A stretch of 64,000 bases of DNA from a candidate division WOR-3 bacterium UBA2202. Lineage in GTDB: Bacteria > Hydrothermota > 32-111. The notes below the pieces were generated by a model. That model did no database searches. It saw only the letters and a program-made list of their open reading frames with translations, and was not told the DNA's origin. The first letter of the stretch is position 1. Every line of letters begins with the position of its first letter. Positions 16,091 through 63,720 of the stretch are shown here, in pieces. The position numbers were made by a program, and so were the translations under genes. The stretch lies in contig DCUY01000067.1 of NCBI GenBank assembly GCA_002327905.1, forward strand, positions 10,764 through 74,763, in the 5' to 3' direction.

Positions 16091-16518
16091 ATTACAATCC
16101 TCAAAAGGGCATTTGCGGCAATTCCCGAGATAATGTCATCCATTATGATCCCTGCAGTCCCTTTAATGTTCTCTGATTTTCTTATGAAGAGAGGTTTCGC
16201 AATGTCCATATATCTGAAAAGAATAAACGCAGAGGCGAATATAAAAACCGAATGGGGCAAAAATAAAAGCGAAACAATCATTCCAATAAGCTCGTCCGCC
16301 ACAATTTTAGAATCATCTCCTTTGAAAGAACCCGCATACTCTATCGAAATGGAAGACAGAAGCAGAACATTTGAAAAGATCAGAAACATCTGAATATCGC
16401 CAAACCTCATAAAATAAGCAATGAGGCAGAAAAGGAGGGATACTATGGTTCCGCCGCCCTTAATATTGCCAATATAAAAACATGAAGCGATAATGTGATA
16501 TATTTTTTTAAAAATCAT
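16078..16518 (-). CDS. pgpA: Phosphatidylglycerophosphatase A
   Basis: 146 aa membrane protein. The N-terminal FYIGNIKGGGTIVSLL matches the PgpA family. Confidence 0.75.
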   Translation of the reverse strand: MIFKKIYHIIASCFYIGNIKGGGTIVSLLFCLIAYFMRFGDIQMFLIFSNVLLLSSISIEYAGSFKGDDSKIVADELIGMIVSLLFLPHSVFIFASAFILFRYMDIAKPLFIRKSENIKGTAGIIMDDIISGIAANALLRIVIWIL

Positions 16519-17246
16519 TTATACATCTCTGGAATTCTCTTCAATTCCCTGATGTCCTCTATCGAAAACAGATTTAAGTGGTTGAGAATGATTATTATCT
16601 TTTTTATTTTTCCATCTTTTATTCCTATTCCGGATACAAATGAAAGCAATTTTTCAGGAAGAAACGGCGGAATCTGTTTTATGTCAGTCTCTTTGAAGCG
16701 AGCAATTCCGACAAGATAATCCACATAGATTCCAACTCTGAGATCATCAATCTGAAGAATTATTATTGAACCGTCTTCTTTGCGGTCGTCTTTCATGCCG
16801 AATTTTTTTCTGAAATCAACAAGAGGAATAACTCCGTCCTTCATATTTGTTATTCCGAAAAACAGGTCGCTCTTCACTCCGACATCCAATGGCTTCTTAT
16901 ATTTTATTATCTGCCTCACAAAATCACTGTCAATTGCATATTCTTCATTCTTAAGAAGAAATGTCACAAACTCTTTTACCGAATCAGCATCCTCTTTTTT
17001 TTCTTGAGACTGATTCATGCGCCGAATATCGGCAATTTCAGATTTTACCTGCGACATTTCAATTTTCTTTTCTGCCTTCACCGGCTCCTTATGCTCAAGA
17101 TGCTCTGATTTCTCCTGTTTGGAAGCAATTTCAGGTTTGGACAGTTTCACTAAAGGTCCCTTTTCTTCAGACTTTTTAGGCTTGATCTTCTTGTCCGGTT
17201 TATCGTTCTGAAGAATATCCTGAAGGTCAATTTTCTTTTTCATCAT
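16515..17246 (-). CDS. CheW-like coupling protein with a Lys/Glu-rich N-terminal extension
   Basis: C-terminal CheW domain (EYAIDSDFVRQII...GVIPLVDFRKKFG...IIILQIDDLRVGIYVDYLVGIARF). The first ~90 aa are a K/E-rich low-complexity region. Confidence 0.75.
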   Translation of the reverse strand: MMKKKIDLQDILQNDKPDKKIKPKKSEEKGPLVKLSKPEIASKQEKSEHLEHKEPVKAEKKIEMSQVKSEIADIRRMNQSQEKKEDADSVKEFVTFLLKNEEYAIDSDFVRQIIKYKKPLDVGVKSDLFFGITNMKDGVIPLVDFRKKFGMKDDRKEDGSIIILQIDDLRVGIYVDYLVGIARFKETDIKQIPPFLPEKLLSFVSGIGIKDGKIKKIIIILNHLNLFSIEDIRELKRIPEMYK

Positions 17247-18072
17247 TTTCTCCGGTTAATTCTTTTAGCTTTTCTTCCGCTTTCTGAGCCCATCTGTTGT
17301 ATCTGTTCTTCTTTATAAGGTCATTAAGGGTCTTTATGCCCTTGTTTTCAAGGCCCGATTCAAAGAATGCTATTCCGAGATAATAATACGCCTCCATATG
17401 ATTGGGTCCGAGCTCAATGGTCTTGCGGAAGAATTTTATCGCGTCATCATACATCTCCCTGTCTCTATAAATAAGTCCAAGGTAAAAATTTGCATATATC
17501 AGCGACATTTTATCGTCAGTAGTCTTTAATACTGAAGTAAGATGCTCAATAGCCTCTCCAAATATTCCTTTTTTGAAACACACATATCCCAGATTGTTTT
17601 TTGCTATTGCATTATCAGGGTCAATCTGAAGAACCTTCTGAAATATTGACATCGCATCATCATACCTCTCCTTGTGAAGATATGCCCATCCCAAAAGCCC
17701 GAGAGATTTCACATCATTCGGGGCAAGACTCATTGCTTTTTCAAGTATTTCGACAGCATCATCATACTGCTCGTCAACCATGAAATTCCATCCCTTGTCT
17801 ATATATGTTGTCAAATCAACAGGAGAAATTTTCATTGACTGCACAAATGACTGCAGGCCCTCTTTGTTTATATTCGGATTCTTTATTCTCTTTGCCAGCT
17901 GTTTTATCCTCCCGTCAGCATGTTTTATAAAAGCATTCATTGATAAAATCTGCTTATAGACTTCCATAAGCTCGTTTTTTATATGCTCCTCTCCGTATTT
18001 TCCGGTATCAATTACACTCTCTATTCTGTCGAGATGAGCATCAATTTCCTTTTTTGCATCAGTCCATTTCAT
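17227..18072 (-). CDS. TPR repeat protein
   Basis: Multiple 34-aa repeats of the W-LG-Y / A---F---L---P-N type (LGWAYLHKERYDDAMSIFQKVLQIDPDN and others). Confidence 0.7.
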   Translation of the reverse strand: MKWTDAKKEIDAHLDRIESVIDTGKYGEEHIKNELMEVYKQILSMNAFIKHADGRIKQLAKRIKNPNINKEGLQSFVQSMKISPVDLTTYIDKGWNFMVDEQYDDAVEILEKAMSLAPNDVKSLGLLGWAYLHKERYDDAMSIFQKVLQIDPDNAIAKNNLGYVCFKKGIFGEAIEHLTSVLKTTDDKMSLIYANFYLGLIYRDREMYDDAIKFFRKTIELGPNHMEAYYYLGIAFFESGLENKGIKTLNDLIKKNRYNRWAQKAEEKLKELTGENDEKEN

Positions 18073-19102
18073 CTGTCAGCTCCTCTATCTTTTCAGAGAT
18101 TCTGTCTTTGTCCATTATAAAATCGACACTTCCCGTATCAATTGCGGCTTTCGGCATACCGAAGACTACTGATGAATCTTTTGATTCCGCTATGTTTGTT
18201 CCGCCCATTTTTTTTATTATGAAGACTCCTTCAGAGCCGTCCTTCCCCATTCCTGTCAAAATGACTCCTATAATTCTTTTTCTGAAGTATCTCACTGCGG
18301 AGAGCATCATTATGTCAGCCGCAGGTTTGACGGAATGGTACGGAGGGTCATCCGACAAATGTACAATTCCGCTTTCATCAAAAATCATGTGTTTGCCGCC
18401 CTGAGCGATAATACAGTCTCCGTTTTTCAAGCCGCAGTTTTCGTATGCTTCAAAAACATTCAAACCCGACATGGTGTTCAGTCTCTCGGAAAATGATTTT
18501 GTGAAACCGGCAGGCATGTGCTGGACAACTGCGACAGCAGCGTTCAGCTCCGGCTTTATGCGCGGTATTATCTCCATAAGGGATTTCGGTCCGCCCGTTG
18601 AAGATGCTACAGCGACAAGATTGACTGCATTTGTCTCCTGCTTTGCCTTGCCGCCCACCCTCTCGGCTACTGCAGAAGAAGATTGAAATAGTCTGCTGAT
18701 ATTTGATTTCAAAGCGCATTGCATTTTTTGAAGTATTTCATCCCTCTTCTCCGTGATGTCCAAAGATATTGAACCTGACGGTTTTTCCACTATATCAAAT
18801 GCTCCGAATTCAAGAGCTTTAAGAGCTATCTTGGAGCCTGCTTTTGAATACGCGCTCACTATGATTACAGGTACGGGCTTTATACGTAGAATCTGCTGAA
18901 GACTTATCAGTCCGTTTATCTTCGGCATTTCAATGTCAAGTGTCACAATATCAGGATCAAGAATCCTGAATTTTTCTATCGCCTCCGCTCCGTCTGCCGC
19001 TTCGCCCACTACCATGAATGCCTTGTCTGAATTGATTATGTCCTTCAATATCTGCCGCATCAACAATGAATCATCAACGACAAGAACTCTGTTGATTTTC
19101 AA
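18059..19102 (-). CDS. cheB: Chemotaxis response regulator protein-glutamate methylesterase
   Basis: N-terminal receiver (VLVVDDSLLMRQ...DIVTLDIEMPKINGL) and C-terminal methylesterase (VAVASSTGGPKSL...GMPKAAIDTG). Confidence 0.9.
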   Translation of the reverse strand: MKINRVLVVDDSLLMRQILKDIINSDKAFMVVGEAADGAEAIEKFRILDPDIVTLDIEMPKINGLISLQQILRIKPVPVIIVSAYSKAGSKIALKALEFGAFDIVEKPSGSISLDITEKRDEILQKMQCALKSNISRLFQSSSAVAERVGGKAKQETNAVNLVAVASSTGGPKSLMEIIPRIKPELNAAVAVVQHMPAGFTKSFSERLNTMSGLNVFEAYENCGLKNGDCIIAQGGKHMIFDESGIVHLSDDPPYHSVKPAADIMMLSAVRYFRKRIIGVILTGMGKDGSEGVFIIKKMGGTNIAESKDSSVVFGMPKAAIDTGSVDFIMDKDRISEKIEELTDEMD

Positions 19103-19578
19103 TATTGAATCTCCCCGAGTTTATATGATGTCACTTTAATCTTTCCTGTCTTAATTGTGAATTCGACCGACCTGCTGTAATCGCTCCCCGTGTCCTCAGC
19201 TGTCACAGGTATTCTGTTCTCTCTCAGCATTTTTTTTGCCATTTCAATATTTCTGTATCCTATTGATTCTTCAACATTTTTTATAAAAATGGAGAACATG
19301 TTGGCCCCTCCGACTACTTTTGCCTCCATTCTGTATTTTCTTGCTCCAAGCTGTTCCATCTCCATAATTAGATTGGACAGGCCAGTGTCGCAGTATTTGT
19401 ACGGATTAAAGAAAGCCTTGGAAAATACTTTGCTCGGCAGCATAAAATGTATCATTCCTCCTATTTTTTTTTCTCTGTCAAAGAGAGTTACCGCAACGCA
19501 GGAGCCGAGTCCTATCGTTTTAAGCACATCCTCTTCAAATGCTACATTGGCGTCAGCTATTCTGATGTTAATAATCAA
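19099..19578 (-). CDS. cheD: Chemoreceptor glutamine deamidase CheD
   Basis: 159 aa. The GLGSCVAVTLFD...GGMIHFMLPS signature matches CheD. Confidence 0.85.
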   Translation of the reverse strand: MIINIRIADANVAFEEDVLKTIGLGSCVAVTLFDREKKIGGMIHFMLPSKVFSKAFFNPYKYCDTGLSNLIMEMEQLGARKYRMEAKVVGGANMFSIFIKNVEESIGYRNIEMAKKMLRENRIPVTAEDTGSDYSRSVEFTIKTGKIKVTSYKLGEIQY

Positions 19579-20371
19579 TTTTTCTAAAGACCCTTTCCTT
19601 TCTGTTTATTGTTTCAAACATGTCTTTTACATAGCCCGTAAGAATTTCGACTTTTCCGAGGACAAGATATCCGTTCTGCTTCAATATTTTATGAAAGTTT
19701 GATATAATGCTCTCCTGAAAATCCTTTGAAAAATATATCAGAATGTTTCTGCATATTATCAAATCAAATTTCCCCATTGTAAGAAGGGAGTCGCTCTCCT
19801 TTATATCCATAATTATAAAATCCACATTTCTCTTTATATCTTCATCAAGAATGTAATGCTGTCCGCTCTTCTTAAAGTATCTCGCCACCTCAGAATGCTT
19901 CAGCTCCATAAAAGAGTAATCGCTGTAAATTCCTATTTTTGCCTTTTCAATGGCGTCTGCGTCAACATCTATCCCCACTATTTCATAATCTCCGTCAGAG
20001 TTTCTGAAAAAATTCTTCAGTATCATTGAAAGAGTATACGGCTCTTCTCCTGTGGAGCATCCTGCGCTTAAAATGCGCACCTTCTGATTTTTCCGCACAA
20101 TGTCTTTGAATATTACATCTCCAAGAAAATCAAATGTCTCTCTGTTTCTGAAAAATCTCGTCACATTTATTGTAAGAGTGTCTTTCAGCTTCATCATCTC
20201 AGCTTGATTGTACCGGAGATATTCAAGATACTCTCTGTAGCTCTTCTGGTCAGTATATCTCATTCTGACAGCTATTCTTCTCTTGAACGGCCTCTCTTTG
20301 TATAGGTTTCCGTCTATGCTGATATGCTTCTTTATATAATCAATAAGAAACTGATAATCATTGTCAACCAT
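19568..20371 (-). CDS. cheR: Chemotaxis protein methyltransferase CheR
   Basis: TRFFRNRETFDFL N-terminal helical domain, and the SAM-binding motif VRILSAGCSTGEEPYTLSMIL. Confidence 0.9.
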   Translation of the reverse strand: MVDNDYQFLIDYIKKHISIDGNLYKERPFKRRIAVRMRYTDQKSYREYLEYLRYNQAEMMKLKDTLTINVTRFFRNRETFDFLGDVIFKDIVRKNQKVRILSAGCSTGEEPYTLSMILKNFFRNSDGDYEIVGIDVDADAIEKAKIGIYSDYSFMELKHSEVARYFKKSGQHYILDEDIKRNVDFIIMDIKESDSLLTMGKFDLIICRNILIYFSKDFQESIISNFHKILKQNGYLVLGKVEILTGYVKDMFETINRKERVFRKIDY

Positions 20372-21962
20372 TTCTTACGGTCTCCAGAGTGCGTTTCAAA
20401 ATTTCATTGTCAGGCTGAAGTTCAAGAGCCTTTTCCCAATAAACCAAAGCATCCTGCTTTTTTCCCTTTCTATAGCGGAGATTTCCGATTTTATACAGTA
20501 TGTCAAAATCCGCTTTTCCGATATTGACTATGTCTTCAAGCACTTGTTCCGCCGCGTCAAAATTCTTTTCATTGAAATAATATTCCACTAAAGCTTTGAA
20601 AGGAACAGGGTCGGAATTTGAAGTCTCGACCGCTTTTTTAAACATACTCTCTGCGGACTCAATTTTTCCGCTTATTGTGTATATTTCTCCTAAATTGTAA
20701 TAAACCTGCCATATTGTATTGTCCTGTTTTATAAGTGAAAAGAGAATATTTGTAGCTTCGCTCACCATTCCGTTTTCAAAATATACAAGCGCAAGAAAAA
20801 ATGATGCGTATTTCAGGTTTTGGTCTATTTTTAACGCCATTTTAATTCTCTCTTCTGCCTCTGAGAAGAGATTCATTTTGAATGAGAGTATTCCATAATT
20901 AGCAAGAATCTTGGCATTCTCAGGTTCGATCTTCAAAGCTCTCTCATAAAATTCATCCGCCCTTTCGTAATTATTCAGCCTCTCATAAGTGAGAGCTATA
21001 TTGTTGAAAAGGGCGATATTTCCGATTCCAAGCTTCAAGAGCTCCTCAAAAGATTGAAGAGCCTTCTCATAGTCTTTCAATCTGAAGTAAATAAGCCCTA
21101 TATAGAAATATGCTTTGATATTGGTTTTGTCTATCTGTATTATATGCCTGAATTCCCGCAGAGCCTCTTCATACATTTCAGTCAGAAGAAATGCAAGCCC
21201 TAAATTGTGGTGCTCCTGCACTTTTGTCTGAATGTCTGTGGACATCTCTATCTGCTTCTCTTCTCCTGAATAAATGTATCCCACTTTCAGAAGAGTGTAT
21301 ATGGCCTTTCCCGTTTCATATCTTCCCAAAACTGATTTGTCAAAGATCTCTCTTATTGAGAGCCTGTTATTTACAAGAGAATAAATGTATCTCTCGTCAT
21401 CCTCCTGAAGAGTCTTCTCATCCTTTATGCTCGTCTTTACCAGAATGGTCTTCTCATTCGGAAGTTCTTTCTCAATTATCGACCACTCATCGATTTTTCT
21501 CGCCTCCTCAAGAAGTATATCATCCGCTTCAAGCTCCACAGTGATGGTTTCGGATACAGGCGGAATATCCGGTTCAAAATTGAAGAACCCGTCTTTCCAT
21601 GTCAGAAGAGTGAATATTGAATCTATTATTTGTTTTTTTATTCTGTCCACCAAAATATCAAGAGTTATGTATCCCATCTCTATAAGAAGGTCTCCAAGCC
21701 TTTTCAGCCCCTTCATCTCCTCTTGAGCCTCCAAAGCCTTCTCCAAATTCTCTTTTGAAATATCTCCGTACTTCACAAGCAGATTGCCAAGCCTCTCTTC
21801 CCTGTTTACTATTGAGCAGTAAATAATCTTTCCGTCCCTGAAGAAAATATCACCAAAATTCTTCTTGTCGGAAACACTCAAAACTCCGGTCTTCCTTCCT
21901 AAAGAAAGCAGTTGAATCACATCAGGAAGAGACGCCTCTTTGAGGTTTCCCCGTATGCTCAT
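20364..21962 (-). CDS. DUF4388-like N-terminal domain fused to a TPR-repeat array
   Basis: The N-terminal ~100 aa (GNLKEASLPDVIQLLSLGRKTGVLSV...GDIFFRDGKIIYCS...ERLGNLLVKYG) fit the DUF4388 pattern. The C-terminal half holds at least seven TPR motifs. Overlaps cheR and the upstream ATPase gene. Confidence 0.55.
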   Translation of the reverse strand: MSIRGNLKEASLPDVIQLLSLGRKTGVLSVSDKKNFGDIFFRDGKIIYCSIVNREERLGNLLVKYGDISKENLEKALEAQEEMKGLKRLGDLLIEMGYITLDILVDRIKKQIIDSIFTLLTWKDGFFNFEPDIPPVSETITVELEADDILLEEARKIDEWSIIEKELPNEKTILVKTSIKDEKTLQEDDERYIYSLVNNRLSIREIFDKSVLGRYETGKAIYTLLKVGYIYSGEEKQIEMSTDIQTKVQEHHNLGLAFLLTEMYEEALREFRHIIQIDKTNIKAYFYIGLIYFRLKDYEKALQSFEELLKLGIGNIALFNNIALTYERLNNYERADEFYERALKIEPENAKILANYGILSFKMNLFSEAEERIKMALKIDQNLKYASFFLALVYFENGMVSEATNILFSLIKQDNTIWQVYYNLGEIYTISGKIESAESMFKKAVETSNSDPVPFKALVEYYFNEKNFDAAEQVLEDIVNIGKADFDILYKIGNLRYRKGKKQDALVYWEKALELQPDNEILKRTLETVRNG

Positions 21963-23633
21963 TTACACCTCAAACTCGACATACAATCTGTCATGTTCGT
22001 TAACCCATTCCTTAATAAGCTTGGAAGTGTCATATTCGCTCTTTTTCCTTGAGGAGATTTTTTTTGATTCTGTCTGAGGAAATACTTTGTTGATTGCTTC
22101 AACTGTCGGTGCGCCGCCGGGAGAAAAAGATGCGAGCTCCGCAAATTTTTCATCAACGCTTGAAAGCGGAGTTTCTATGGCATCAAGCATATAATTCATC
22201 AGAAAATCATTTGTCTGAATACCTGCTCTTGCGAACATACTCTTGTAGACATTTTTTTTGATAAAAAGAGAGGTCGGCTGAATATTGTAGGATTGAAATT
22301 TATTAAGGAAATTCAACAGCTCTCTGTCATCAATGCTGAATTTTCTGTACATTGAAATCACTTTAGGCACATTATTCATAATAATATTTTTTAGGACAAG
22401 CTTGTTGGCTTTATTCTCAAAGAGTAAATCAAAATCATCTATCAAAATTATGCTGAGCTCATCCATATATTTCATGACATATGAATTGTTCACTGCTGAA
22501 TCGATATTGGTTTTGTCCAATAGAATGATTCTCTTATCCGAAAATCTGTTGCAGATGCTGTTTAAGAGATGCGTCTTTCCTGTTCCGTTTGTTCCTGTCA
22601 ATATAACTATTTTATCGGCATTTTCACTATTCAGTATTTCTGTTATTTTGTTGTATGCCGACCTGTTCGTCGCATCCGTTATGAAGGATTCATAATTCAT
22701 CGAAAGCTTTGTACTGCTTCTGAAAACTCTGAGGTATTTAATTTTATCTTTTAAAAATTCTATCTTTTCCCGCAGTTCAACCAGTCTGTCAGGGTCAAAA
22801 AGCATATCCTCTATCTCTCTTGATTCCTTCTTAAACTCCTTGACATTAAGAAGCCCGTATTCCTTATGGAGTTCAACAAGATTCTTCACCTTCTCCGTAT
22901 ATTCGGAGAACTCGCTCTTAATCAATGAAATGTCATTCACATTTATTATATTCTTTAGTCTCTCCACATTGAAGCCCTTCATCTCCCAAATATAGAGTTT
23001 TTCAATATACTCGTCTCTTTTTTCCCCCTCTCTCAGATTTTCCTGCACTCCGGCCTCTCTCTTTACTTCTCTTATAAAATCGGCAAAATCCTTGACCGGA
23101 TTCTCTTCCTTCTTTTCCGGGCTGAAGGTGAGATCAAAAAATTTCCCTGCCATCAGAGTGTTTTTTGTCCTTAAATCTATGGTTATATCCTCCAGACTTT
23201 TCTTTGTAGTGACCAGAAGATATGATGTTGAATGAAGATTGTTGATTATTTCGAGGATTATGTCATGAACAACAGTATTCTTCTCCACCTGCTCAAAATT
23301 TTCTATTATCAAAAGATTTGAATAGAGAAGGAATCTCTTATACTTCATCAAAGCATTGAATTTCATCATCTCAACCATCTCTTTAAGATCAATTCTGAAA
23401 ATATAAAAATCAGGAAATGCATTTGATATTGACTCTGCCATTTTGTCGGCAAATATTTCTCCAGACTGGTCATCAGAACGAACTACAATTACTCTTGAAG
23501 TCAATGTGCCTGTGCTTACTGCATAAGAGAGCTCGGATTTCAGAAAAGCATTTTCCGGAAGTTCAGTGTCGCCGCTGTGCTTCTGTCTGGTTCCGAATGT
23601 CTCCTGAAACTCCTTTATATCATTTTCATTCAT
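21963..23633 (-). CDS. Tandem DnaA/Hda-like AAA+ protein: N-terminal degenerate copy plus C-terminal intact ATPase module
   Basis: C-terminal module has Walker A ILTGTNGTGKTHLLNSICN, Walker B SIILIDDFDLLFENK and a sensor-like stretch, closely resembling the DnaA/Hda AAA+ core. N-terminal residues ~40-170 repeat the layout (FLLYSNLLIIENFEQV...YLLVTTKKSLEDI) but lack a P-loop. TGA/ATG junction with mglA. Confidence 0.5.
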   Translation of the reverse strand: MNENDIKEFQETFGTRQKHSGDTELPENAFLKSELSYAVSTGTLTSRVIVVRSDDQSGEIFADKMAESISNAFPDFYIFRIDLKEMVEMMKFNALMKYKRFLLYSNLLIIENFEQVEKNTVVHDIILEIINNLHSTSYLLVTTKKSLEDITIDLRTKNTLMAGKFFDLTFSPEKKEENPVKDFADFIREVKREAGVQENLREGEKRDEYIEKLYIWEMKGFNVERLKNIINVNDISLIKSEFSEYTEKVKNLVELHKEYGLLNVKEFKKESREIEDMLFDPDRLVELREKIEFLKDKIKYLRVFRSSTKLSMNYESFITDATNRSAYNKITEILNSENADKIVILTGTNGTGKTHLLNSICNRFSDKRIILLDKTNIDSAVNNSYVMKYMDELSIILIDDFDLLFENKANKLVLKNIIMNNVPKVISMYRKFSIDDRELLNFLNKFQSYNIQPTSLFIKKNVYKSMFARAGIQTNDFLMNYMLDAIETPLSSVDEKFAELASFSPGGAPTVEAINKVFPQTESKKISSRKKSEYDTSKLIKEWVNEHDRLYVEFEV

Positions 23634-24232
23634 CTTTTATTATCATACTTCCTTGTCAATTGCTTTATCACCGAAAACATCGCGTCTTTCAATGTCTCAA
23701 TCACCCCGGTTCCCTTTGTTGCAATAGCTTCAAAAGCCTTCCAATCGCTCCTTATCTGAAGAGCGCTCTTAATTACATTTGTGTCAACTGCATTCGGCAG
23801 GTCTCTCTTATTATACTGAATCACCAAAGGCATTGTCTCTATGCTGAATCCGTGCTCCTTAAGATTGATGGCAAGATTTTCAAAAGATTCTATGTTATCC
23901 TCCATTCTATCCGCCTGAGAATCCGCTACAAAGACAACTCCGTCAGCTCCCTGAAGAACAAGTTTTCTTGTAGAGTCGTAATATACCTGTCCGGGAACAG
24001 TATAGAGCTGAAATTTCGCATTGAAATTTCCTATTTTCCCCACATCAAATGGAAGAAAATCAAAGAAGAGCGTCCTGTCCATCTCAGTTGCAAGAGATGT
24101 CATTTCCCCTCTCTTTTCAATTGGAATTTTGCTGAAGATATACTGCAGGTTGGTTGTCTTGCCCGACCTTCCCGGTCCGTAGTAAACAACTTTGCAGATA
24201 ATCTCTTTTTTTGCGTAGTTTACCAATGACAT
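23630..24232 (-). CDS. mglA: MglA-family Ras-like small GTPase
   Basis: Near-collinear with Myxococcus MglA: KVVYYGPGRSGKTTNLQYIF (P-loop), TLFFDFLP (switch I), YTVPGQVYYDSTRKLVLQGADGVVFVADSQ (switch II, with intrinsic Arg and Gln), IQYNKRDLPNA (NKxD). Start set at MSLVNYAKKEI (24232) by alignment to MglA N-termini. The ORF-track start at 24268 is also possible. Confidence 0.9.
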   Translation of the reverse strand: MSLVNYAKKEIICKVVYYGPGRSGKTTNLQYIFSKIPIEKRGEMTSLATEMDRTLFFDFLPFDVGKIGNFNAKFQLYTVPGQVYYDSTRKLVLQGADGVVFVADSQADRMEDNIESFENLAINLKEHGFSIETMPLVIQYNKRDLPNAVDTNVIKSALQIRSDWKAFEAIATKGTGVIETLKDAMFSVIKQLTRKYDNKR

Positions 24233-24239
24233 AATTACC

Positions 24240-25343
24240 TCAATCTCTGAATGTGTTATTGAAAGCATCGCCTTCGTTTGACTCTATTCCTCTCAGTTTC
24301 AGCTTGAATTCGTCAACATTAGTTACTGACTGCAATGCGTCGTCATATGATATTATTCCTGACTTATATAAACGTATAATGGATTGATCAAAAGTGTGCA
24401 TCTGGTACTGCTGACCCTCTTCTATGGCTGACGGAATAAGAAGAGTCTTTATCGGGTCAAGAAGATAATCCTTTATTGTAGGGGTGTTAATCATCACTTC
24501 GGTGGCTGGCACCCTGCCCTTTCCGTCAACTCTCGGAAGAAGCCTCAATGAGAGAACTCCCACAAGAGTGGTCGCCAGCAAAACTCTTATATGTTGCTGT
24601 TGATGAGGAGGATAGAATGAAAGTATTCTGTTTATAGTCTCTGAAGCATTCAAAGTGTGCAGTGTTGACATCACAAGATGTCCCGTGTCAGCCGCTTTGA
24701 TTGCGACATCCATTGTATCCATATCTCGAATCTCTCCCATCAGAATAATGTCCGGATCCTGCCTCAGCACATGCTTTAAGGCATTTTCATAAGAGAATGT
24801 GTCATTTCCCACCTCTCTCTGCGAAATAACGGATTTTTTGTCTCTGAAGAGATACTCAATCGGGTCTTCAATCGTAATGATATTTCTGGCTGCATTTTCA
24901 TTTATGTATTCAATCATTGCCGCAAGAGTTGTTGATTTTCCGCTTCCGGTTGTTCCTGTGGTGAGTATCATTCCTCTCGGCCTCATAACGACCTCTTTTA
25001 ACACCGGAGGCAGATTGAGCTCGTCAATTGTCTTTGCGGATATGGGGATTGTGCGCATTGCAATCGCAACACTTCCCCTCTGAAGATAAACATTGACCCT
25101 GAATCTTGAAAGACCGGCGACTCCTATTGCAAAGTCTATTTCTTTTTTGGCAGTGAATTCATCCTGTTGCTCCTTATTCATAATCTTCAATGCAATCTTC
25201 CGCAATTCATCAGGACTCATCGGCTCGTCTTTTACAATGTTCAGCTTCCCGTCAATTCTAAGAATCGGAGGAGTGCCTGCCTTAAGATGCAGATCTGATG
25301 CTCCGTCCTTAACCATTTTTTCAAGCAATGATTTTAATTCCAT
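24240..25343 (-). CDS. pilT: Type IV pilus retraction ATPase PilT
   Basis: 367 aa. N-terminal GASDLHLKAGTPPILRIDGKL, Walker A GTTGSGKSTTL, Asp box and His box (TLHTLNASETINRIL). PilT-type length, with no long N-terminal domain. Confidence 0.9.
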   Translation of the reverse strand: MELKSLLEKMVKDGASDLHLKAGTPPILRIDGKLNIVKDEPMSPDELRKIALKIMNKEQQDEFTAKKEIDFAIGVAGLSRFRVNVYLQRGSVAIAMRTIPISAKTIDELNLPPVLKEVVMRPRGMILTTGTTGSGKSTTLAAMIEYINENAARNIITIEDPIEYLFRDKKSVISQREVGNDTFSYENALKHVLRQDPDIILMGEIRDMDTMDVAIKAADTGHLVMSTLHTLNASETINRILSFYPPHQQQHIRVLLATTLVGVLSLRLLPRVDGKGRVPATEVMINTPTIKDYLLDPIKTLLIPSAIEEGQQYQMHTFDQSIIRLYKSGIISYDDALQSVTNVDEFKLKLRGIESNEGDAFNNTFRD

Positions 25344-25915: not shown

Positions 25916-27565
25916 TTACCTCCGCTCTTTTTCTTTATCTTTTTCTTTTCTTTGGTTTATTATTTTAACCCAGTCATTGAAACTTGCTTTTGCAATGTAG
26001 GTTTGATCTCTCTTTGTCTCAGGCTTATCCTGTTTTTCGTCATGCTTCTCTTCTTCTCTCTCTTTAACAGTATTGTCTGAAGTCTTTGAATCTTCTTTTT
26101 TTTCTATTAATTTTGAATTTTCTTCTTTCTCTTCAGAAGCATTCTCCTGAACCTCGCTCTTTAAAATCTCGTCTTTCTCATCATCCTTCGTCTCTTCCCT
26201 CTCTGCCTCCTTTGCCTCTTCTTTTTCTATTTTAGAATCTTTTTGATTAAAATCATAATTGACTGCAGGAATCTCCTGCTTGGAAGTTTCGTCAAGTTTA
26301 TCAGCAAAATCGGAAGAAGGAGTTTCTGACATAGCAGTTCTGTCGGCGTATTTCTCCTCTGCGTCTTTGAATTCCTTTACCGTCATATCCTCTGATGACA
26401 GACTCTTATTGAGACGCTCAATGAATTCCGTCCGGCTTTTATTCTTCTTTTGCTCCTCTTCCTTGACAGTGTCAATATTGAATTCCTGTTTTGCTATTTC
26501 TTCATTTAAGAATCTAATCTTCTCTGCGTATTCCTCGCTCTCCGGATTATGTCTTAATAGCATTTGATATATCTCTATTGCCTTCTCGTATTTCTTCTGT
26601 TGAATATAAATCAATGCCATCTCTTTTGAATAAAAGAGCACTTTCTGCTTTCCCGGAAGGTCAAAAGGCACTACGGGTTTACCGCTGTCTGCCTCTTCCT
26701 TTTTCTTTGGTTTCGATATGTTGAAGTCCACTGAAGGATTTATGTACTTTGATTCATCAAGCATCTCTGTCTTTGATTCTTCTTTTGAGTCTTCCTTCAT
26801 CTTTTCTTTGGCTGTCTCTTTGATTTTCTCGGTGGATTCTTTTTTTTCTGCGGTCTTTTCTTCAGCAGTATGCTTCTCGGGGACCTTATTCTCTTTTGCT
26901 TCATCAGGTTTTGATTCTTTCGGATGTGATTCTTTTTCCTGTTTATTCTCTTTTTCCGCCTCTTTTATTTCAGATTCCTTTTTATCAGAATCGTCATCAA
27001 ATGTAATGAGGCTTGAGGAGTGCTGTATTATAAAATCATCAATATCGCGCCTCTCCTCTTTTGCGCTTTTAGGTTTATCATTCTCTTCTTCCTCCTTCTT
27101 CTTTTTCTTCAATTCCTCGCTTCTCTTTCTCTCCTTCTCCTGCTCATCAAGACGGCTCTTAAGAATTTTAACTTCCCTCTTTGCATTATCATTTGAAGGA
27201 TCAAGAAATAAAACATTATCGTAAAGTTTGTATGACTCTTCGAGATTTCCCTGGGTTTTTTTTATCTCCGCCAGAGAGAGAACGGCAGGAAGATTCTGAG
27301 GGTCCTTTGATATGACCTTTTCAAAAAGCTTTGAGGATTCATTGAAATTTCTTTTCTCTTTATAAGCCTTTGCCATAATAAGAAGAGCGGATAGATTGTC
27401 CGGAGCATACCTTAGCCCTTCCTTTATAACTTCAATGGTCTCATCTATCATTTCAAGTTTCAGATAGATATTGCCCAGTTTAATAAAAGCTTTGGACTTC
27501 GGATTCTTGGCAATCTCTTCCAATAATTCCTTAATCTCTTGTTCGAAACTGTTATATGAAGCCAA
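25916..27565 (-). CDS. TPR protein with long Lys/Glu-rich disordered regions
   Basis: N-terminal TPRs (LGNIYLKLEMIDETIEVIKEGLRYAPDN...). About 150 aa of K/E/D low complexity, then an internal TPR (ALIYIQQKKYEKAIEIYQMLLRHNPES), then another K/E-rich tail. No signal peptide. First gene of the long minus-strand operon. Confidence 0.6.
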   Translation of the reverse strand: MASYNSFEQEIKELLEEIAKNPKSKAFIKLGNIYLKLEMIDETIEVIKEGLRYAPDNLSALLIMAKAYKEKRNFNESSKLFEKVISKDPQNLPAVLSLAEIKKTQGNLEESYKLYDNVLFLDPSNDNAKREVKILKSRLDEQEKERKRSEELKKKKKEEEENDKPKSAKEERRDIDDFIIQHSSSLITFDDDSDKKESEIKEAEKENKQEKESHPKESKPDEAKENKVPEKHTAEEKTAEKKESTEKIKETAKEKMKEDSKEESKTEMLDESKYINPSVDFNISKPKKKEEADSGKPVVPFDLPGKQKVLFYSKEMALIYIQQKKYEKAIEIYQMLLRHNPESEEYAEKIRFLNEEIAKQEFNIDTVKEEEQKKNKSRTEFIERLNKSLSSEDMTVKEFKDAEEKYADRTAMSETPSSDFADKLDETSKQEIPAVNYDFNQKDSKIEKEEAKEAEREETKDDEKDEILKSEVQENASEEKEENSKLIEKKEDSKTSDNTVKEREEEKHDEKQDKPETKRDQTYIAKASFNDWVKIINQRKEKDKEKERR

Positions 27566-27601: not shown

Positions 27602-27630
27602 ATTATAATTAATTTTTTTTATAGTGTCAA
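27602..27630 (-). promoter_or_regulatory. Sigma-70-like promoter (TTGACA-17-TATAAT) for the long minus-strand operon
   Basis: The reverse complement reads TTGACA CTATAAAAAAAATTAAT TATAAT. The -10 element ends about 36 nt upstream of the ATG at 27565. Confidence 0.45.
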
Positions 27631-41574: not shown

Positions 41575-43763
41575 CAGCTCTCCTTTTTTTGTTCCATAAA
41601 TGTCTGAAAATTGTACACTGAGGGCTTCACATAAAAACTCCCCAGCACATGCTTTCCGTAGCTCTTTGTGAGGATTCTTTCGTCAAGTATATAAATCTCT
41701 CCTTTGTCGTCATTCTTTCTTATAAGCCTCCCCATTCCCTGCTTGAGCCTTATTATTGCCTGAGGCAGAGTGTACTCTCTGAACGGGTTAATCTGATTCT
41801 CCTCCATCACCCTGCATCTTCTTCTGATTATCGGGTCATCAGGCACGGCAAACGGCATTTTTAAAATAACTATGATTTCCAAAAGGTCTCCGGGAAGGTC
41901 AACTCCCTCCCAAAACATATTGGTTCCGACTAAAATTGAAGCCTTCCTCTGCTTATGCATATGAAGCAGTTTGTCTCCATTCTCCTCCTTCTTCTGAAAC
42001 AAAAATCTTTTGTCATTGAATCTTTTTTTCAAAAAATCAATCTGTGCGTATGATGTCGCCAATATGAACATTCTTTTGTCGCTTGATGATAACACCTGTA
42101 TTATTTGGGATGCCTTCTCCATGAATCCGTCCGAGTTCGGATCATCCATACCATTGAAGCATATCACCTTCATCTGTTCTTCATAATTGAAAGAGGACTC
42201 GTATGAATTTTCAAAGTGCGCGCGTTTTGTCTGATTTATTCCTGTCTGCTTTTTGAACATTTCAAATGAATTTGAAGCAGTCAGAGTGGCGGATGTGAAG
42301 ATGAATGAAATATCTTCCCGCGAGAGCATCGCCTTTAAGAAAGGTTCTCCCGTATCTACTGGAAGTCCGTTTAAAATTATGTTTTTTCTGTTCGGAACAT
42401 ATTCATAGAAAAATGCATACTCTTCATTGTCAGCCTGTGAATTAACTGCAAAAGACTCAAAGAATCTGTTAGTTTTTTCAAATATGTATTTCAGAGTCTG
42501 ATAAATATCAAGCATCCTGAATTTCTCTTCTTTAAGAAGTTTTATTCCCCTGTCTGCATTATCCGATATCGCAAAAAGCTTCCCGCTTATAAGCCTCACT
42601 CTCTCTTCGGCGCCTCTGAATATTCTTGATGAATATTCATTTCTCTCCTTATTCTCCGTCTCTGCAATATCAAGTATAAACCTGTAAAGAATGTCAATTT
42701 CATCCGTAGCATCATTCATGGTTGAAAGAAGATTCTCAAAATAATTCACAGCATCTGTGGAGAGGTTTGACGACCTGATGAATTTCATTTGACCTCTGAA
42801 TGTGTGCGTGAAGTAATTCATTGTTTTTAGAACATACAAAAAATCAAATTTATATGAATAAATATCAGTTATGGCATTCTCCAGATTGTGCGCTTCGTCA
42901 AAGACTATACAGTCATATTCTCCGAGGAATTTATTTCCGAGTTCTGCATCTATAAGAGACAGATAATGATTTGTAAAGACTATCTGACTTGTCAATGCCT
43001 TCTCTTTCACCTTCAAATAATGGCATATGCCGCTAAACGGGCAGGTATTTTCAACACAGTATTCATTGTCACAGGTTATGTCTCCCCTATCAAGGTCATG
43101 ATGATACTTCAATTCGCTCAAGTCCCCTGAATTTGTAAAAAGCAGAAAACCTTCAAGAGCAAGCTTGGTCAAAGGAGAAAAATTGCTTATATTTTCATTG
43201 TACTTCATGAAACAAAAATAATTCCCTATGCCTTTTAACATTGATGCGGAGACTGATATTCCCGTATAATCCGATGCGGTTTCAAGGTCCTTGTCAAACA
43301 GTTGCATCTGCAGGTTCTTCGTATTGGTTGAAATCACAGCTCTCTTTGAATCTCCTAAATTCTTAATGAGAGGTATAAGATACGCAAGTGATTTGCCTGT
43401 TCCGGGAGGAGCCTCCGCAATAAGAATATTCTGACTGCCTATAGCCTCGTTGATATCATCCATCATATTGAGCTGTCCTCTCCTTTTTTCAAGGTCGAAA
43501 GTCAATTTTTTCGGATAAGTTATTTTAAAGGATGAATCTACTTTTTGAAAAAAATGTTTTTTTGAAAATTTCATCTCTTCGGAAATATAATCGGAAAAAG
43601 GCCCCGGAGTATAATTTAGAAGAAATGAATTCAGAAGAGAGTCATTATAATGGGATATTCTATCCTTAAAAGCCTTTTCGGAGAAATTGCCTGTTTTATC
43701 AAACAGAATGGCATTCTTTTCTTCTTCGGAGATTCTGGAAAAGAGAGAAGATTTCTTATCCAA
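41574..43763 (-). CDS. dinG: ATP-dependent DNA helicase, DinG/Rad3 (XPD) family
   Basis: Walker A APPGTGKSLAYL, DEAH box (FDEAHNLE), four-Cys Fe-S cluster insert (CDNEYCVENTCPFSGIC), and C-terminal helicase motifs. Confidence 0.8.
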   Translation of the reverse strand: MDKKSSLFSRISEEEKNAILFDKTGNFSEKAFKDRISHYNDSLLNSFLLNYTPGPFSDYISEEMKFSKKHFFQKVDSSFKITYPKKLTFDLEKRRGQLNMMDDINEAIGSQNILIAEAPPGTGKSLAYLIPLIKNLGDSKRAVISTNTKNLQMQLFDKDLETASDYTGISVSASMLKGIGNYFCFMKYNENISNFSPLTKLALEGFLLFTNSGDLSELKYHHDLDRGDITCDNEYCVENTCPFSGICHYLKVKEKALTSQIVFTNHYLSLIDAELGNKFLGEYDCIVFDEAHNLENAITDIYSYKFDFLYVLKTMNYFTHTFRGQMKFIRSSNLSTDAVNYFENLLSTMNDATDEIDILYRFILDIAETENKERNEYSSRIFRGAEERVRLISGKLFAISDNADRGIKLLKEEKFRMLDIYQTLKYIFEKTNRFFESFAVNSQADNEEYAFFYEYVPNRKNIILNGLPVDTGEPFLKAMLSREDISFIFTSATLTASNSFEMFKKQTGINQTKRAHFENSYESSFNYEEQMKVICFNGMDDPNSDGFMEKASQIIQVLSSSDKRMFILATSYAQIDFLKKRFNDKRFLFQKKEENGDKLLHMHKQRKASILVGTNMFWEGVDLPGDLLEIIVILKMPFAVPDDPIIRRRCRVMEENQINPFREYTLPQAIIRLKQGMGRLIRKNDDKGEIYILDERILTKSYGKHVLGSFYVKPSVYNFQTFMEQKKES

Positions 43764-45447
43764 CTGTTGCTTTCATTACCTCTTCTAAAGTTGTTATTCC
43801 CGCTTTAACTTTTATAAGCCCATCCTCTCTCAGCATCATAACTCCCTCTCGCCTCGCCTGCATTCTGAGTTCTTCCGTAGGAGCCTGCTTCACTATCATC
43901 TCTCTTAAAGTGTGGGTGAGAGGAAGAATCTCAAATATTCCGACTCGTCCCTTGTATCCTGTGTTTCCGCACTGCATGCAGCCCTTTCCAAGCATGAATT
44001 TTGCTCCGCGCATATACTCCGGATTTACTCCGTATCTTATAAGTTCGTCGTCAGAGACATCAACCTGAGTTCCGCAATGTTTGCACACTCTTCTTATAAG
44101 CCTCTGCGCCTCTATAAGAATAATGGCTGAAGCAACTTTATACGCCTCGATTCCCATGTCCTGAAGCCTTGAAATTGTGGCAATAGTGTCATTAGTGTGA
44201 AGAGTCGATAAGACAAGATGCCCTGTCAATGCCGCTTTTATTGCAATGTTTCCTGTTTCAAGGTCTCGTATCTCTCCCACCATGATTATATCCGGATCCT
44301 GCCTGAGAAATGCCTTCAATGCGGTTGAAAATGTATATCCAATGTTCTCCCTCACATTGACCTGATTTATTCCGATAAAATCATATTCTATAGGGTCCTC
44401 TGCAGTGGTTATATTGACATTCGGAGTATTCAATCTCGAAATCACAGAGTAAAGAGTGACTGTCTTTCCGCTTCCCGTGGGCCCTGTTACGAGTATAATT
44501 CCATTCGGCCTTTCAATAGACTCTATAAAATCATTGTATGCTTTTCTGCTAAGCCCTATGTCTTCAAGCTTCAGAAGAGATGACTTTTCGGCGATTCTCA
44601 TGCAAATCTTCTCTCCGTGCGCAGTCGGAAGAGTCGACACTCTTAGGTCAATCGATTTTTCGGCAACCTTCATTCCTATTCTTCCGTCCTGAGGGATCCT
44701 TCTCTCTGATATATTCAGCCCAGCCATTATCTTCAGTCTGGATGTGATTGCGGGACCCATTGTATATTGCGGACTCATCACTTCCTTCAATTCTCCATCA
44801 ACCCTGTATCTCACTCTCAATATTTTTTCAAACGGCTCTATATGTATGTCAGATGCGCCCTGCCTCACTGCCTCAACTATTATTCCGTTCACAAGCTTGA
44901 CAACCGGAGCGGCATCGACATCAATCAGCAACTGCTGAGCATCAGGCATCTTTTCTTCTTCAATAATCTCAATGTCTTCGTCGTTGATTCCCATTTCCAG
45001 CAATACATCAGCCATGGAACCCGCAACACCATAGTATTTTTCGATTGCCTGAGAAATAAGATTCTCGCTTGCCACCAAAGGCACCACATTATATCCTGTT
45101 GCGAATTTAATATCCTCTATAGTATAGACATCGACAGGATTCGCCATTGCAAGAAAGAGATTCTTGCCCTCTCTCCTTATAGGTATAACCTGAAATTTCT
45201 GAGCTATCTGGGGGGATATTGTCTTTAGAGTCATTGGTTCAATCTCAAGGGAATCAAATGAGACTACCCCCACATTGTACTGCTTTCCCAATGTATGGGA
45301 TATCTGTTCGTCAGTGACAAAATTCATCTGCACCAAAATACTGCCAAGCCTTCCGCCATTGTCTTTCTGCTCGGCGAGTGCGTGTTTCAGCTGATCCATA
45401 TTGATGAGTCCTTCATCAATCAGCATGTCTCCAAGTCGTTTCCACAT
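43756..45447 (-). CDS. pilB: Type IV pilus assembly ATPase PilB (GspE family)
   Basis: N-terminal T2SSE_N domain. Walker A GPTGSGKT, Asp and His boxes. Tetracysteine zinc motif CKHCG...CMQCGNTGYKGR. 563 aa. Confidence 0.9.
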   Translation of the reverse strand: MWKRLGDMLIDEGLINMDQLKHALAEQKDNGGRLGSILVQMNFVTDEQISHTLGKQYNVGVVSFDSLEIEPMTLKTISPQIAQKFQVIPIRREGKNLFLAMANPVDVYTIEDIKFATGYNVVPLVASENLISQAIEKYYGVAGSMADVLLEMGINDEDIEIIEEEKMPDAQQLLIDVDAAPVVKLVNGIIVEAVRQGASDIHIEPFEKILRVRYRVDGELKEVMSPQYTMGPAITSRLKIMAGLNISERRIPQDGRIGMKVAEKSIDLRVSTLPTAHGEKICMRIAEKSSLLKLEDIGLSRKAYNDFIESIERPNGIILVTGPTGSGKTVTLYSVISRLNTPNVNITTAEDPIEYDFIGINQVNVRENIGYTFSTALKAFLRQDPDIIMVGEIRDLETGNIAIKAALTGHLVLSTLHTNDTIATISRLQDMGIEAYKVASAIILIEAQRLIRRVCKHCGTQVDVSDDELIRYGVNPEYMRGAKFMLGKGCMQCGNTGYKGRVGIFEILPLTHTLREMIVKQAPTEELRMQARREGVMMLREDGLIKVKAGITTLEEVMKATVG

Positions 45448-63410: not shown

Positions 63411-63720
63411 ATATATATTGTTTTATTTTATTAAAAGTGTTCTCTTTTATTCCGTTTATTTTCATCAATTCTTCTGGATTTTCAAAGGAGCCGTTTTTTA
63501 TTCTAAAATCCAGAATGTCATTCGCTTTCTTTTCTCCGATTCCCGGTATTTTCATCAATTCTTCTAAAGTTGCCGTATTCAAATTTATATATACTCTTTC
63601 CTTTTTCACAGGAGTTTCAAATCCTTTTATTCCGTTCTCAACTTTAGCATTGATGAAATACATTGTCAGTGACAACGCAGTGACTATCACAGTGAAAAGC
63701 AAATACACTTTATCTTTCAT
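63397..63720 (-). CDS. comEA: ComEA-like helix-hairpin-helix DNA-binding protein
   Basis: N-terminal TM. INLNTATLEELMKIPGIGEKKANDILDFRIKNGSFENPEELMKINGI is the classic ComEA tandem HhH. Confidence 0.75.
   Translation of the reverse strand: MKDKVYLLFTVIVTALSLTMYFINAKVENGIKGFETPVKKERVYINLNTATLEELMKIPGIGEKKANDILDFRIKNGSFENPEELMKINGIKENTFNKIKQYIYVSE

Follow-up and report, generated by a model that had tools for sequence, protein, structure and literature searches.

How is an MglA polarity switch wired when its gene lies in one string with a pilus retraction ATPase and a set of chemotaxis enzymes, and when neither a Roadblock-type GTPase-activating protein (GAP) such as MglB nor a CheA kinase is encoded beside it? 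This question is raised by a 64-kb stretch of contig DCUY01000067.1 from the candidate division WOR-3 bacterium UBA2202 (hereafter the window, meaning the whole stretch analyzed), in which an initial annotation read a minus-strand gene string as a pilT-linked MglA module with a CheA-less Che set and unusual partners instead of MglB. Our analysis of the window and of related loci indicates that this locus is probably the WOR-3-lineage version of a conserved Che-Mgl supercluster, which couples a chemosensory pathway to the MglA switch to steer type IV pili. The two unusual partners, a DnaA-like AAA+ protein and a protein with PATAN and tetratricopeptide repeat (TPR) domains, are extra conserved components and not MglB substitutes, because both are co-encoded with Roadblock genes in clusters of Gemmatimonadota. 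The state without CheA and without a methyl-accepting chemotaxis protein (MCP) is a local, derived and split version of the larger supercluster, whose CheY-CheA-CheC/TPR/Roadblock half and MCP-CheW2 tail are not local in the window's lineage and have been lost or moved.

All genes named in the initial annotation, from pilT to the cheW-like gene, were recovered at 16515-25343 on the minus strand by Pfam and NCBIfam profile scans of the window's open reading frames (ORFs). In transcriptional order, the module comprises the following genes.

24240..25343, minus strand: PilT (TIGR01420, 462.5 bits against a cut-off of 319.1; T2SSE)
23630..24268 as an ORF, 23630..24232 from the likely start, minus strand: MglA, group-1 small GTPase (PDB matches)
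21963-23633, minus strand: AAA+ protein of 556 amino acids (aa) (Pfam/NCBIfam)
20364..21962, minus strand: PATAN (DUF4388) plus TPR protein (DUF4388 E 2e-36 and many TPR models)
19568..20371, minus strand: CheR (Pfam CheR E 6e-51; CheR_N and S-adenosylmethionine (SAM) domain)
19099..19578, minus strand: CheD (Pfam CheD E 2e-31)
18059..19102, minus strand: CheB, receiver plus methylesterase (Pfam; PRK00742, 358 bits against a cut-off of 293)
17227..18072, minus strand: 281-aa TPR protein, coiled segment at its N terminus (Pfam)
16515..17246, minus strand: CheW-like protein (Pfam CheW E 7e-22, aa 92-228)

The absences reported earlier were borne out as local facts. Neither Robl_LC7 nor CheA (Hpt/HATPase), MCPsignal or a stand-alone receiver/CheY was detected among the scanned ORFs of the 64 kb, which comprised all ORFs of at least 90 aa except 63397-63720 and 63710-63991 at the far right end (six called genes were read from precomputed Pfam matches). 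Searches by phmmer with the Roadblock, CheA, CheC and MCP proteins of related loci likewise gave no match in the window, and no Roadblock/MglB, CheA, CheY or MCP was found in the 10 kb past its high-coordinate end. No cheA gene lies next door: the roughly 16 kb that flank the module at one end were negative, as were some 48 kb at the other. A search for an MCP of the window's own clade, using homologues of the sister-clade MCP, found none, although this family evolves fast and yielded three specific matches only, two of which led to MCP-CheW pairs next to pgpA-cinA-recA in another lineage. Three candidates for a hidden MglB were considered and rejected: TPR0, the TPR protein encoded two genes upstream of pilT, shows N-terminal TPR-level similarity only (19% identity) to the TPR-Roadblock proteins of Gemmatimonadota and is otherwise Lys/Glu-rich and of low complexity; the 129-aa ORF 29806-30195 has no Pfam match and lies outside the conserved module; and the model of the AAA+ protein holds only AAA-type cores and helices.

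A profile scan with the AAA+ protein, over one genome per GTDB species, yielded 50 loci (denoted by L numbers), on which the window proteins were then mapped. The best MglA and AAA+ matches came from candidate division WOR-3, TA06, Stahlbacteria-like and unclassified metagenome-assembled genomes. In this comparison of the neighbourhoods of MglA and AAA+ relatives, the gene order of the module proved to be real and conserved, as it recurs in more than 20 species-level genomes (WOR-3, TA06 and Stahlbacteria-like) with differing flanks. The arrangements in three clades were as follows.

Clade A (the window's), 12 species-level genomes: TPR0-EFP-PilT-MglA-AAA-PATAN/TPR-CheR-CheD-CheB-TPR-CheW-PgpA
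Clade B (TA06-like), 4 genomes: PilT-DUF2273-MglA-AAA-PATAN/TPR-CheR-CheD-CheB-TPR in one complete locus, with unrelated flanks
Clade C (deeper WOR-3), 5 genomes: PilT-AccC-ThiE-MglA-AAA-PATAN/TPR-CheR-CheD-CheB-TPR-ExeA-like ATPase-CheW-MCP-CheW

The other three loci of clade B, none of which contains CheW, any more than the complete one does, are cut by contig ends. In every WOR-3/TA06 locus, the AAA+ gene directly follows mglA with a 4-nt overlap, and the PATAN-TPR gene is always directly 3' of the AAA+ gene in the loci compared. The pilT gene lies upstream of mglA in every WOR-3/TA06 locus reaching that far; nothing intervenes in the window's clade, whereas the other two clades have one small DUF2273 gene or accC and thiE in between. 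Clade C retains an in-cluster MCP (L022, L023, L024, L026 and L061), which passes the membrane several times and has a canonical signalling tip and methylation helices of the EEQMASMEE type, and the window's CheW-like protein is the orthologue of the first CheW in the CheW-MCP-CheW extension of this sister clade. In another lineage (L063 and L064), MCP-CheW lies beside pgpA-cinA-ligT-recA and the Mgl part is absent. From the MCPs of clade C and of these two loci, it follows that the receptor is ancestral to the cluster and was lost locally in the window's clade. Two further observations concern these extensions. An ExeA/MshM-like AAA_22 ATPase is encoded between the TPR gene and cheW (L022:10813-11619, L061:16897-17709, with counterparts in L023, L024 and L026), and conserved small proteins with no Pfam match flank MCP-CheW in L063 (9537-9962 and 12256-12630) and also in L064, the 124-aa one resembling a degenerate CheW.

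The remainder of the pathway was found in Gemmatimonadota-type loci, as listed below.

L046 (Gemmatimonadales), in order: CheY, CheA, CheC/X, a TPR protein of ~900 aa, PATAN-TPR, TPR-Roadblock, Robl_LC7, Robl_LC7, MglA, tandem DnaA-like AAA+, PATAN-TPR, CheR, CheD, CheB, CheW genes, TPR
L065 and L066: supercluster as in L046, preceded by an extra CheW, CheW-CheY-CheA-CheC-TPR900-PATAN/TPR-TPR/Robl-Robl-Robl-MglA-AAA-PATAN/TPR-CheR-CheD-CheB
L060 (complete Gemmatimonadota genome): CheY-TPR-PATAN-Robl x3-MglA-AAA-PATAN/TPR, with Che enzymes absent

The L065 and L066 loci were entered through two MglA homologues from the 60%-identity tier, chosen without knowing their context, one of which is present on dozens of metagenome contigs. 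A Roadblock/LC7 gene within about four genes of mglA, the mark of a coupled MglA/MglB module, is absent from the window and present in L046, L060, L065 and L066, in all of which the MglA/AAA+/PATAN-TPR core directly follows two or three Roadblock/LC7 proteins. In L046, L065 and L066, this core is also flanked by CheY-CheA-CheC upstream and by CheR-CheD-CheB downstream; the CheA of L046 has Hpt, P2, dimerisation, HATPase and CheW domains. In two of these three full loci (L046 and L066), cheB is succeeded by CheW genes and a TPR gene, whereas the L065 cluster ends at cheB. The 281-aa TPR gene follows cheB, or cheW in L046 and L066, in every locus reaching that far except L065. The PATAN/TPR-CheR-CheD-CheB junction is thus kept in three WOR-3/TA06 clades and three Gemmatimonadota-type loci. 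These results lend no support to two claims of the initial annotation, namely that the AAA+ and PATAN-TPR proteins stand in for MglB, with which two or three Roadblock genes in four loci are at odds, and that the lack of CheA is a property of the system, given CheY-CheA-CheC in three clusters and CheW-MCP-CheW in the sister WOR-3 clade.

We next consider whether the window's own proteins carry traces of the missing half. The real start of MglA is almost certainly M13 (24232), because the resulting length of 200 aa is that of its relatives and a 7-nt gap is left after pilT. The window protein matches Myxococcus xanthus MglA (6h17, 5ymx; E 2e-70) and Thermus thermophilus MglA (3t12; E 2e-66), and its similarity to characterised MglA spans residues 1-192, that is, the full length. 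Its motifs include the P-loop GPGRSGKT (G19, G21), an intrinsic Arg finger (TEMDRTLFFDF), YTVPGQ and NKRD. It thus has Gly21 within a P-loop GxxxxGKT, an Arg finger beside the G2 Thr and a G3 motif TVPGQ, the latter two being features of group-1 MglA according to PMC4316618. G21, R53 and Q82 are retained in all module MglAs, and the window protein is a canonical group-1 MglA that is predicted to be hydrolysis-competent. In the survey of Milner et al. (PMC3983030), G21 co-occurs with MglB, and S or A at position 21 goes with MglB loss. Among the Che enzymes, CheR contains the motifs SAGCSTGEEPYT and ICRNILIYF and keeps its SAM motifs; CheD matches Thermotoga maritima CheD (PDB 2f9z, E 3e-29), with GLGSC and HxMLP conserved and the catalytic Thr-Cys-His positions aligned; and the CheB receiver is intact (DD, the D in LDIEMP, S and K), as is the Ser/His/Asp triad. 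Judged by these residues, CheR, CheD and CheB are catalytically intact. A GAP, for which the retained G21, arginine finger and Q82 of MglA argue, and a kinase, for which the conserved phospho-acceptor of CheB argues, are accordingly predicted elsewhere in the genome.

These residues bear on the best surviving alternative, which is close to the proposal of the initial annotation: a CheA- and MglB-independent system in which the WOR-3 DnaA-like ATPase and the PATAN-TPR protein regulate MglA as GAP, guanine nucleotide exchange factor or timer, and in which CheR, CheD and CheB modify either an array or some substrate other than an MCP, with output to MglA, bypassing CheA-CheY. In its favour are the finding that no CheA, CheY or Roadblock was detected in about 25 WOR-3/TA06 loci (+/-10 kb) or in the 64-kb window, the MCP-bearing sister clade, whose cluster has MCP, two CheW and the adaptation enzymes, yet no CheA, and the invariable position of the AAA+ gene directly after mglA in these loci. 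However, the same AAA+ and PATAN-TPR proteins co-occur with two or three Roadblock proteins, CheA, CheY and CheC in Gemmatimonadota, so that they did not originate as substitutes; no phospho-acceptor residue has been lost from the CheB receiver, and the CheA/CheW-binding tip of the MCP is canonical; MglA keeps the G21 that goes with MglB in the surveyed genomes; and the AAA+ model has no GAP-like or Roadblock-like fold. We therefore consider this explanation unlikely.

A related proposal concerns the MglA subfamily. The P-loop GPGRSGKT is common to 107 of the 120 best MglA matches (Myxococcus has GPGLCGKT), and AAA+ and then PATAN-TPR follow mglA for all eight MglA homologues looked up (8/8). 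This P-loop, together with the invariant neighbours, therefore defines a distinct MglA subfamily with its own partners. It could be proposed that the DnaA-like AAA+ and PATAN-TPR proteins are the obligatory core of a GPGRSGKT subfamily hard-wired to a chemosensory pathway, and that in WOR-3/TA06 an AAA+ ATPase cycle, with cyclic di-GMP (c-di-GMP) sensed by PATAN, replaced the MglB-GAP/CheA-CheY logic. This is improbable in our judgement; if true, signals from a receptor array would reach a small GTPase with no histidine kinase in between.

There is also little likelihood that the genes are fortuitous neighbours, that is, an MglA/AAA+/PATAN-TPR unit beside remnant Che adaptation genes serving an unrelated pathway encoded elsewhere, although the layout of the window invites this explanation. 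The minus strand from about 27.6 kb to 11.8 kb is a single unbroken run of genes, with the following features on either side of the module.

27602..27630, minus strand: putative sigma-70-type promoter-like site, TTGACA-17-TATAAT, 12/12 (consensus match alone)
25916..27565, minus strand: TPR0, TPR protein of 549 aa (Pfam), with N-terminal TPRs and then a long Lys/Glu-rich low-complexity region
25354-25914, minus strand: EF-P (efp), between TPR0 and pilT (Pfam)
downstream of the cheW-like gene, minus strand: PgpA, CinA, LigT, RecA, RecX and a Band-7 protein (Pfam)

From mglA through cinA, neighbouring genes abut or share overlaps of 4-20 nt. The same string continues into the housekeeping genes pgpA, cinA, ligT, recA and recX, and efp precedes it; tight packing is weak evidence of a functional link because these housekeeping genes are packed likewise. 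Moreover, L060 has the Mgl core without Che enzymes, and L063 and L064 have MCP-CheW beside pgpA-cinA-recA without the Mgl part. The argument for linkage therefore rests on the comparison across clades and phyla. There, the PATAN/TPR-CheR-CheD-CheB junction persists in three WOR-3/TA06 clades whose flanks differ, as well as in three Gemmatimonadota-type loci, and the Che genes of the latter bracket the Mgl core on both sides, an arrangement hard to obtain without selection for co-expression. The promoter-like site lies ahead of TPR0 in the only sizeable intergenic gap 5' of the string; as the sole good candidate there, it is a candidate operon start. The membership of TPR0 in the module is uncertain: its position is kept in L005-L021, in synteny with the module throughout the window's clade, and its similarity to the Gemmatimonadota TPR-Roadblock proteins is weak and at the TPR level only, the Roadblock part being absent.

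The AAA+ protein was described in the initial annotation as a tandem DnaA-like protein. This stands at the level of fold, given two AAA cores in the AlphaFold 2 (AF2) model and strong Bac_DnaA matches in both halves of distant orthologues. In the window's lineage, however, the Walker A motif is gone from the N-terminal half, and sequence similarity to DnaA is confined to aa 305-508 (DnaA domain III-like; PDB 2z4r, E 3e-15). The AF2 model (mean predicted local distance difference test score (pLDDT) 79.8) consists of a first core, a disordered linker, a helical domain, an AAA+ module with lid and a disordered tail, and its top Foldseek matches are to the tandem-AAA protein p97. The parts are distributed as follows.

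23124..23633, minus strand: N-terminal half, aa 1-170, AAA-type alpha/beta core (AF2 pLDDT about 85-90)
22719..23024, minus strand: middle helical domain, aa 204-305, KLYVWEMKGFNV...LHKEYGLLN...EIE..LFDPD, the most conserved part of the protein, with no Pfam family
22074..22706, minus strand: C-terminal DnaA/Hda-type module with lid, aa 310-520, Walker A GTNGTGKTH and Walker B LIDDFD
21966..22070, minus strand: C-terminal tail, disordered (pLDDT <50), ending ...EW.N..DRLYVEFE (alignments)

In the orthologues of L008, L022-L027, L025 and L046, the N-terminal half has GxGKS/T and a Bac_DnaA match. The Hda (TIGR03420) and Bac_DnaA matches of the window protein are below or near the cut-offs, with equivalog scores of 54 against 195 for TIGR03420 (Hda) and 37 against 344 for TIGR00362 (DnaA), and neither DnaA domain I nor domain IV (Bac_DnaA_C) was matched by Pfam. 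Conservation is highest in the rod-like middle domain and the C-terminal peptide, which suggests that the conserved role of this protein may be docking rather than catalysis. In the tail, a loose motif W...R[LM]..[ED] is present in all lineages, the exact peptide being limited to the window's clade, and we regard the C-terminal peptide as a candidate short linear docking motif. A reading of ...LYVEFE as a pentapeptide tethering CheR or CheB (xWxxF-like) was dropped, as the exact peptide occurs only in the window's clade.

Relatives of the middle domain were found well beyond the module. In an exhaustive profile search, this domain of about 100 aa occurred as 5-17 tandem repeats in giant proteins of 1000-3000 aa (P0152, P0161, P0198), and in DHVE2/Thermoplasmata archaea (L031-L044) a single copy is fused to a DnaA-type AAA+ and DUF835. 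The domain is thus an unnamed helical repeat domain common to giant bacterial proteins and archaeal AAA+/DUF835 proteins. On every contig long enough to include the neighbour, the archaeal AAA+/DUF835 gene adjoins a convergent gene for a TPR protein of about 700 aa; in L031, the one scanned, this protein also has helix-hairpin-helix and Zn-ribbon domains. Because these archaeal relatives adjoin a TPR protein, the AAA+-TPR partnership may be older than its link to MglA. The weakest alternative, that the AAA+ protein is a replication-related DnaA/Hda paralogue and the cluster ties the cell cycle or DNA transactions to MglA rather than pili, is highly improbable: the resemblance of aa 305-508 to DnaA domain III and Hda, the names in the source annotation (DnaA/Hda family protein) and at JGI (chromosomal replication initiation ATPase DnaA) and the downstream recA, recX and cinA speak for it, but the DNA-binding domain IV and domain I have no match, the equivalog scores are far under the cut-offs, the first of the two ATPase sites has degenerated here, the gene stays with mglA and PATAN-TPR from phylum to phylum while recA and cinA do not, and the archaeal relatives pair with a TPR protein and not with replication genes.

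The PATAN-TPR protein carries PATAN (DUF4388) at aa 1-161 (Pfam match aa 4-161), with an alpha-helical insertion, and a TPR domain at about aa 245-525; no receiver (Response_reg) domain was matched by Pfam, the C-terminal part consisting of TPR repeats. In cyanobacterial type IV pilus (Tfp) chemosensory systems, PATAN serves as the output domain and binds PilB1/PilC (bioRxiv 10.1101/2021.06.11.447907), and the window protein is a candidate adaptor between MglA and the pilus motor. Within the insertion, two motifs of the MshEN type were recognised.

21630..21794, minus strand: two MshEN-type c-di-GMP motifs in the PATAN helical insertion, aa 57-80 RLGNLLVKYGDISKENLEKALEAQ and aa 88-111 RLGDLLIEMGYITLDILVDRIKKQ

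The insertion scores 45 bits against NF053729 (cut-off 38) and matches the c-di-GMP-binding domains of PilF (6f8l, E 2e-8) and MshE (5htl, E 1e-5). Compared with the motif definition of PMC5013675, the two motifs have a spacer of 7 residues instead of 5 and two conservative deviations, and still conform to it. As such motifs are also kept in all module-linked PATAN-TPR orthologues, the protein is a putative c-di-GMP receptor of the MshEN type. A GAF plus HD-GYP protein, a putative c-di-GMP phosphodiesterase, is encoded elsewhere in the window (58634-59779, plus strand), and a similar GAF-GAF-HD-GYP gene lies close to the module in L061.

As to the machine controlled, the PilT call is genuine: the protein scores above the TIGR01420 cut-off as a type IVa pilus retraction ATPase of the PilT/PilU family. 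A PilB-type extension ATPase with an MshEN N-domain (43756..45447, minus strand; T2SSE E 2e-134), 18 kb from the module, is a likely target machine of the module, and a homologue of the polar scaffold DivIVA (35823-36401, minus strand) lies with pilB 10-20 kb upstream of the module. The pilus context of the module is strengthened by one WOR-3 lineage (L005/L006, 1331-5714), in which pilMNO-(unknown)-pilQ and the gene for a small receiver protein immediately precede TPR0-efp-pilT-mglA. Control of type IV pilus polarity, as initially suggested, is plausible. In the Che-Mgl supercluster as we picture it, an MCP/CheW array would sense a signal and be adapted by CheR, CheB and CheD (the MCP being in sister-lineage clusters and not local here). 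CheA, which is in the Gemmatimonadota cluster and presumably elsewhere here, would phosphorylate CheB and a CheY-type regulator, and the latter would act on the MglA/Roadblock-GAP switch, as Frz does in Myxococcus. MglA-GTP at one pole would then engage the TPR surfaces of PATAN-TPR and of other TPR proteins, like SgmX and Bd2492, and PATAN would engage the PilB/PilC motor, as cyanobacterial PATAN does, opposing PilT and setting the pole of pilus extension and retraction. An additional input might come from c-di-GMP modulating the PATAN step. The AAA+ protein would be a nucleotide-dependent scaffold or spacer for the assembly or placement of the complex, docking via its middle domain and/or its C-terminal peptide.

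Several points weigh against this view. The mechanism that we infer is built from homology and gene linkage, and it assumes that cheA, cheY, mglB and an MCP are present elsewhere in this genome. Within the WOR-3 clade, operon membership alone is weak evidence, as efp, pgpA, cinA, ligT and recA are also included. No PilT is encoded in the Gemmatimonadota clusters, and a direct connection with pili is therefore limited to WOR-3/TA06. CheC/CheD-containing chemosensory pathways are typical of flagellar classes, and the output could for this reason be something other than pili. Finally, the scaffold role of the AAA+ protein is highly tentative, and a fold search with its middle domain returned generic helical repeats alone.

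In Myxococcus, the link from Frz to MglA/MglB was established genetically, but its genes are dispersed and there is continuing debate about the molecular interface. The present cluster has several features in common with the M. xanthus Frz-MglA/MglB(/RomR-RomX)-SgmX (FrzS) system: MglA belongs to group 1 and has identical catalytic residues, CheR and CheB are part of a Che pathway, TPR proteins are the likely effectors of MglA, and the machines under control are type IV pilus ATPases; in the Gemmatimonadota relatives, Roadblock GAP-type proteins are also encoded beside mglA. However, frz, mglBA, sgmX and pilT are unlinked in Myxococcus and joined in one cluster here, with CheD (and CheC in relatives), the DnaA-like AAA+ protein and PATAN-TPR as invariant partners. 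No RomR/RomX, FrzZ, FrzS or CheA-CheY fusion (FrzE) was seen, and there is no MglB in the window; FrzX, a cytoplasmic FrzCD receptor and a CheR-TPR fusion of the FrzF type are likewise absent there, the TPRs being separate genes from CheR and the MCPs of relatives being multi-pass membrane proteins. The cyanobacterial Tfp systems (Tax1/Pix and Tax3/Pil; PixG, PilG, PixE) share a PATAN with helical insertion in a chemosensory cluster governing type IV pili, and have CheA and an MCP and no MglA. Unlike in cyanobacterial PATAN-REC proteins (REC, receiver), TPRs replace the receiver here, so that control would be by protein binding (of MglA?) and possibly by c-di-GMP, not by phosphorylation.

Bdellovibrio bacteriovorus, with its MglA-Bd2492(TPR)-RomR system, also has an mglA without adjacent mglB, a TPR protein and polar type IV pili (PMC3983030). 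Its MglA, however, has S21 and is thought to be GTP-locked, explaining the loss of MglB, and its locus has neither Che enzymes nor an AAA+ partner; the window's MglA should still cycle and need a GAP, because G21, R53 and Q82 are kept. A further parallel comes from the published MglA surveys (Wuichet and Sogaard-Andersen 2014; Makarova et al. 2006), according to which some group-1 MglA proteins are coupled to two MglB, PATAN genes are occasionally found in the vicinity, and Gemmatimonadetes have group-1 MglA. As for DnaA and Hda, the C-terminal module of the AAA+ protein can be aligned to DnaA domain III, including the lid, Walker A (GKTHLL) and Walker B (LIDD), whereas the tandem AAA+, the inserted rod-like helical domain and the fixed partnership with MglA and PATAN-TPR set it apart.

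The initial annotation also regarded the system as undescribed, which holds in part. The literature searched gave no description of the cluster and no paper linking MglA with a full Che set, PilT and a DnaA-like AAA+ protein, and a search for motility genes in WOR-3, an uncultured group, returned nothing relevant. However, the neighbourhood link between MglA/MglB and PATAN and the 1:2 MglA:MglB systems had already been noted (Wuichet and Sogaard-Andersen 2014, PMC4316618), the former also by Makarova et al. 2006 as cited there, and the binding of PATAN to PilB/PilC is published. Group-1 MglA neighbourhoods have been described as 'varying widely' (PMC4316618), and Che enzymes, CheA/CheY/CheC, PilT and a DnaA-like AAA+ protein are not mentioned as conserved neighbours in the text of the published MglA surveys. 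The use of TPR effectors by MglA for type IV pili is likewise known (PMC7519303, PMC7668184 and PMC3983030). The cluster of MglA, PilT, DnaA-like ATPase, PATAN-TPR and chemotaxis enzymes is therefore conserved and apparently undescribed; the invariant AAA+ and PATAN-TPR components and the explicit genomic wiring are new, and a chemosensory pathway that controls type IV pili through an MglA polarity switch is of a known kind. The fusion of Che and Mgl genes in one cluster, in at least two or three phyla of the Fibrobacteres-Chlorobi-Bacteroidetes (FCB) group, provides independent evolutionary evidence that the coupling of Che to MglA is old and widespread, and the AAA+ and PATAN-TPR proteins, the latter with its c-di-GMP-type motifs, are obvious candidates both for the missing Che-MglA interface and for its connection with the pilus motor.

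Some further observations were made in the window. The CheW-like protein has a Lys/Glu-rich N-terminal extension of about 90 aa ahead of its CheW domain. ThyX (8861-10198, plus strand) is 445 aa long with two Thy1 stretches, an apparent internal duplication, and SecA (3415-6900, plus strand), an unusually long protein of 1161 aa, contains large insertions in its DEAD and P-loop domains. No Pfam match was obtained for the ORFs 39020-39715 (plus strand, 231 aa), 29806-30195 (minus strand, 129 aa), 51113-52507 (minus strand, 464 aa) and 54579-56909 (plus strand, 776 aa), the last two of which are situated within a polysaccharide-export/glycosyltransferase region.

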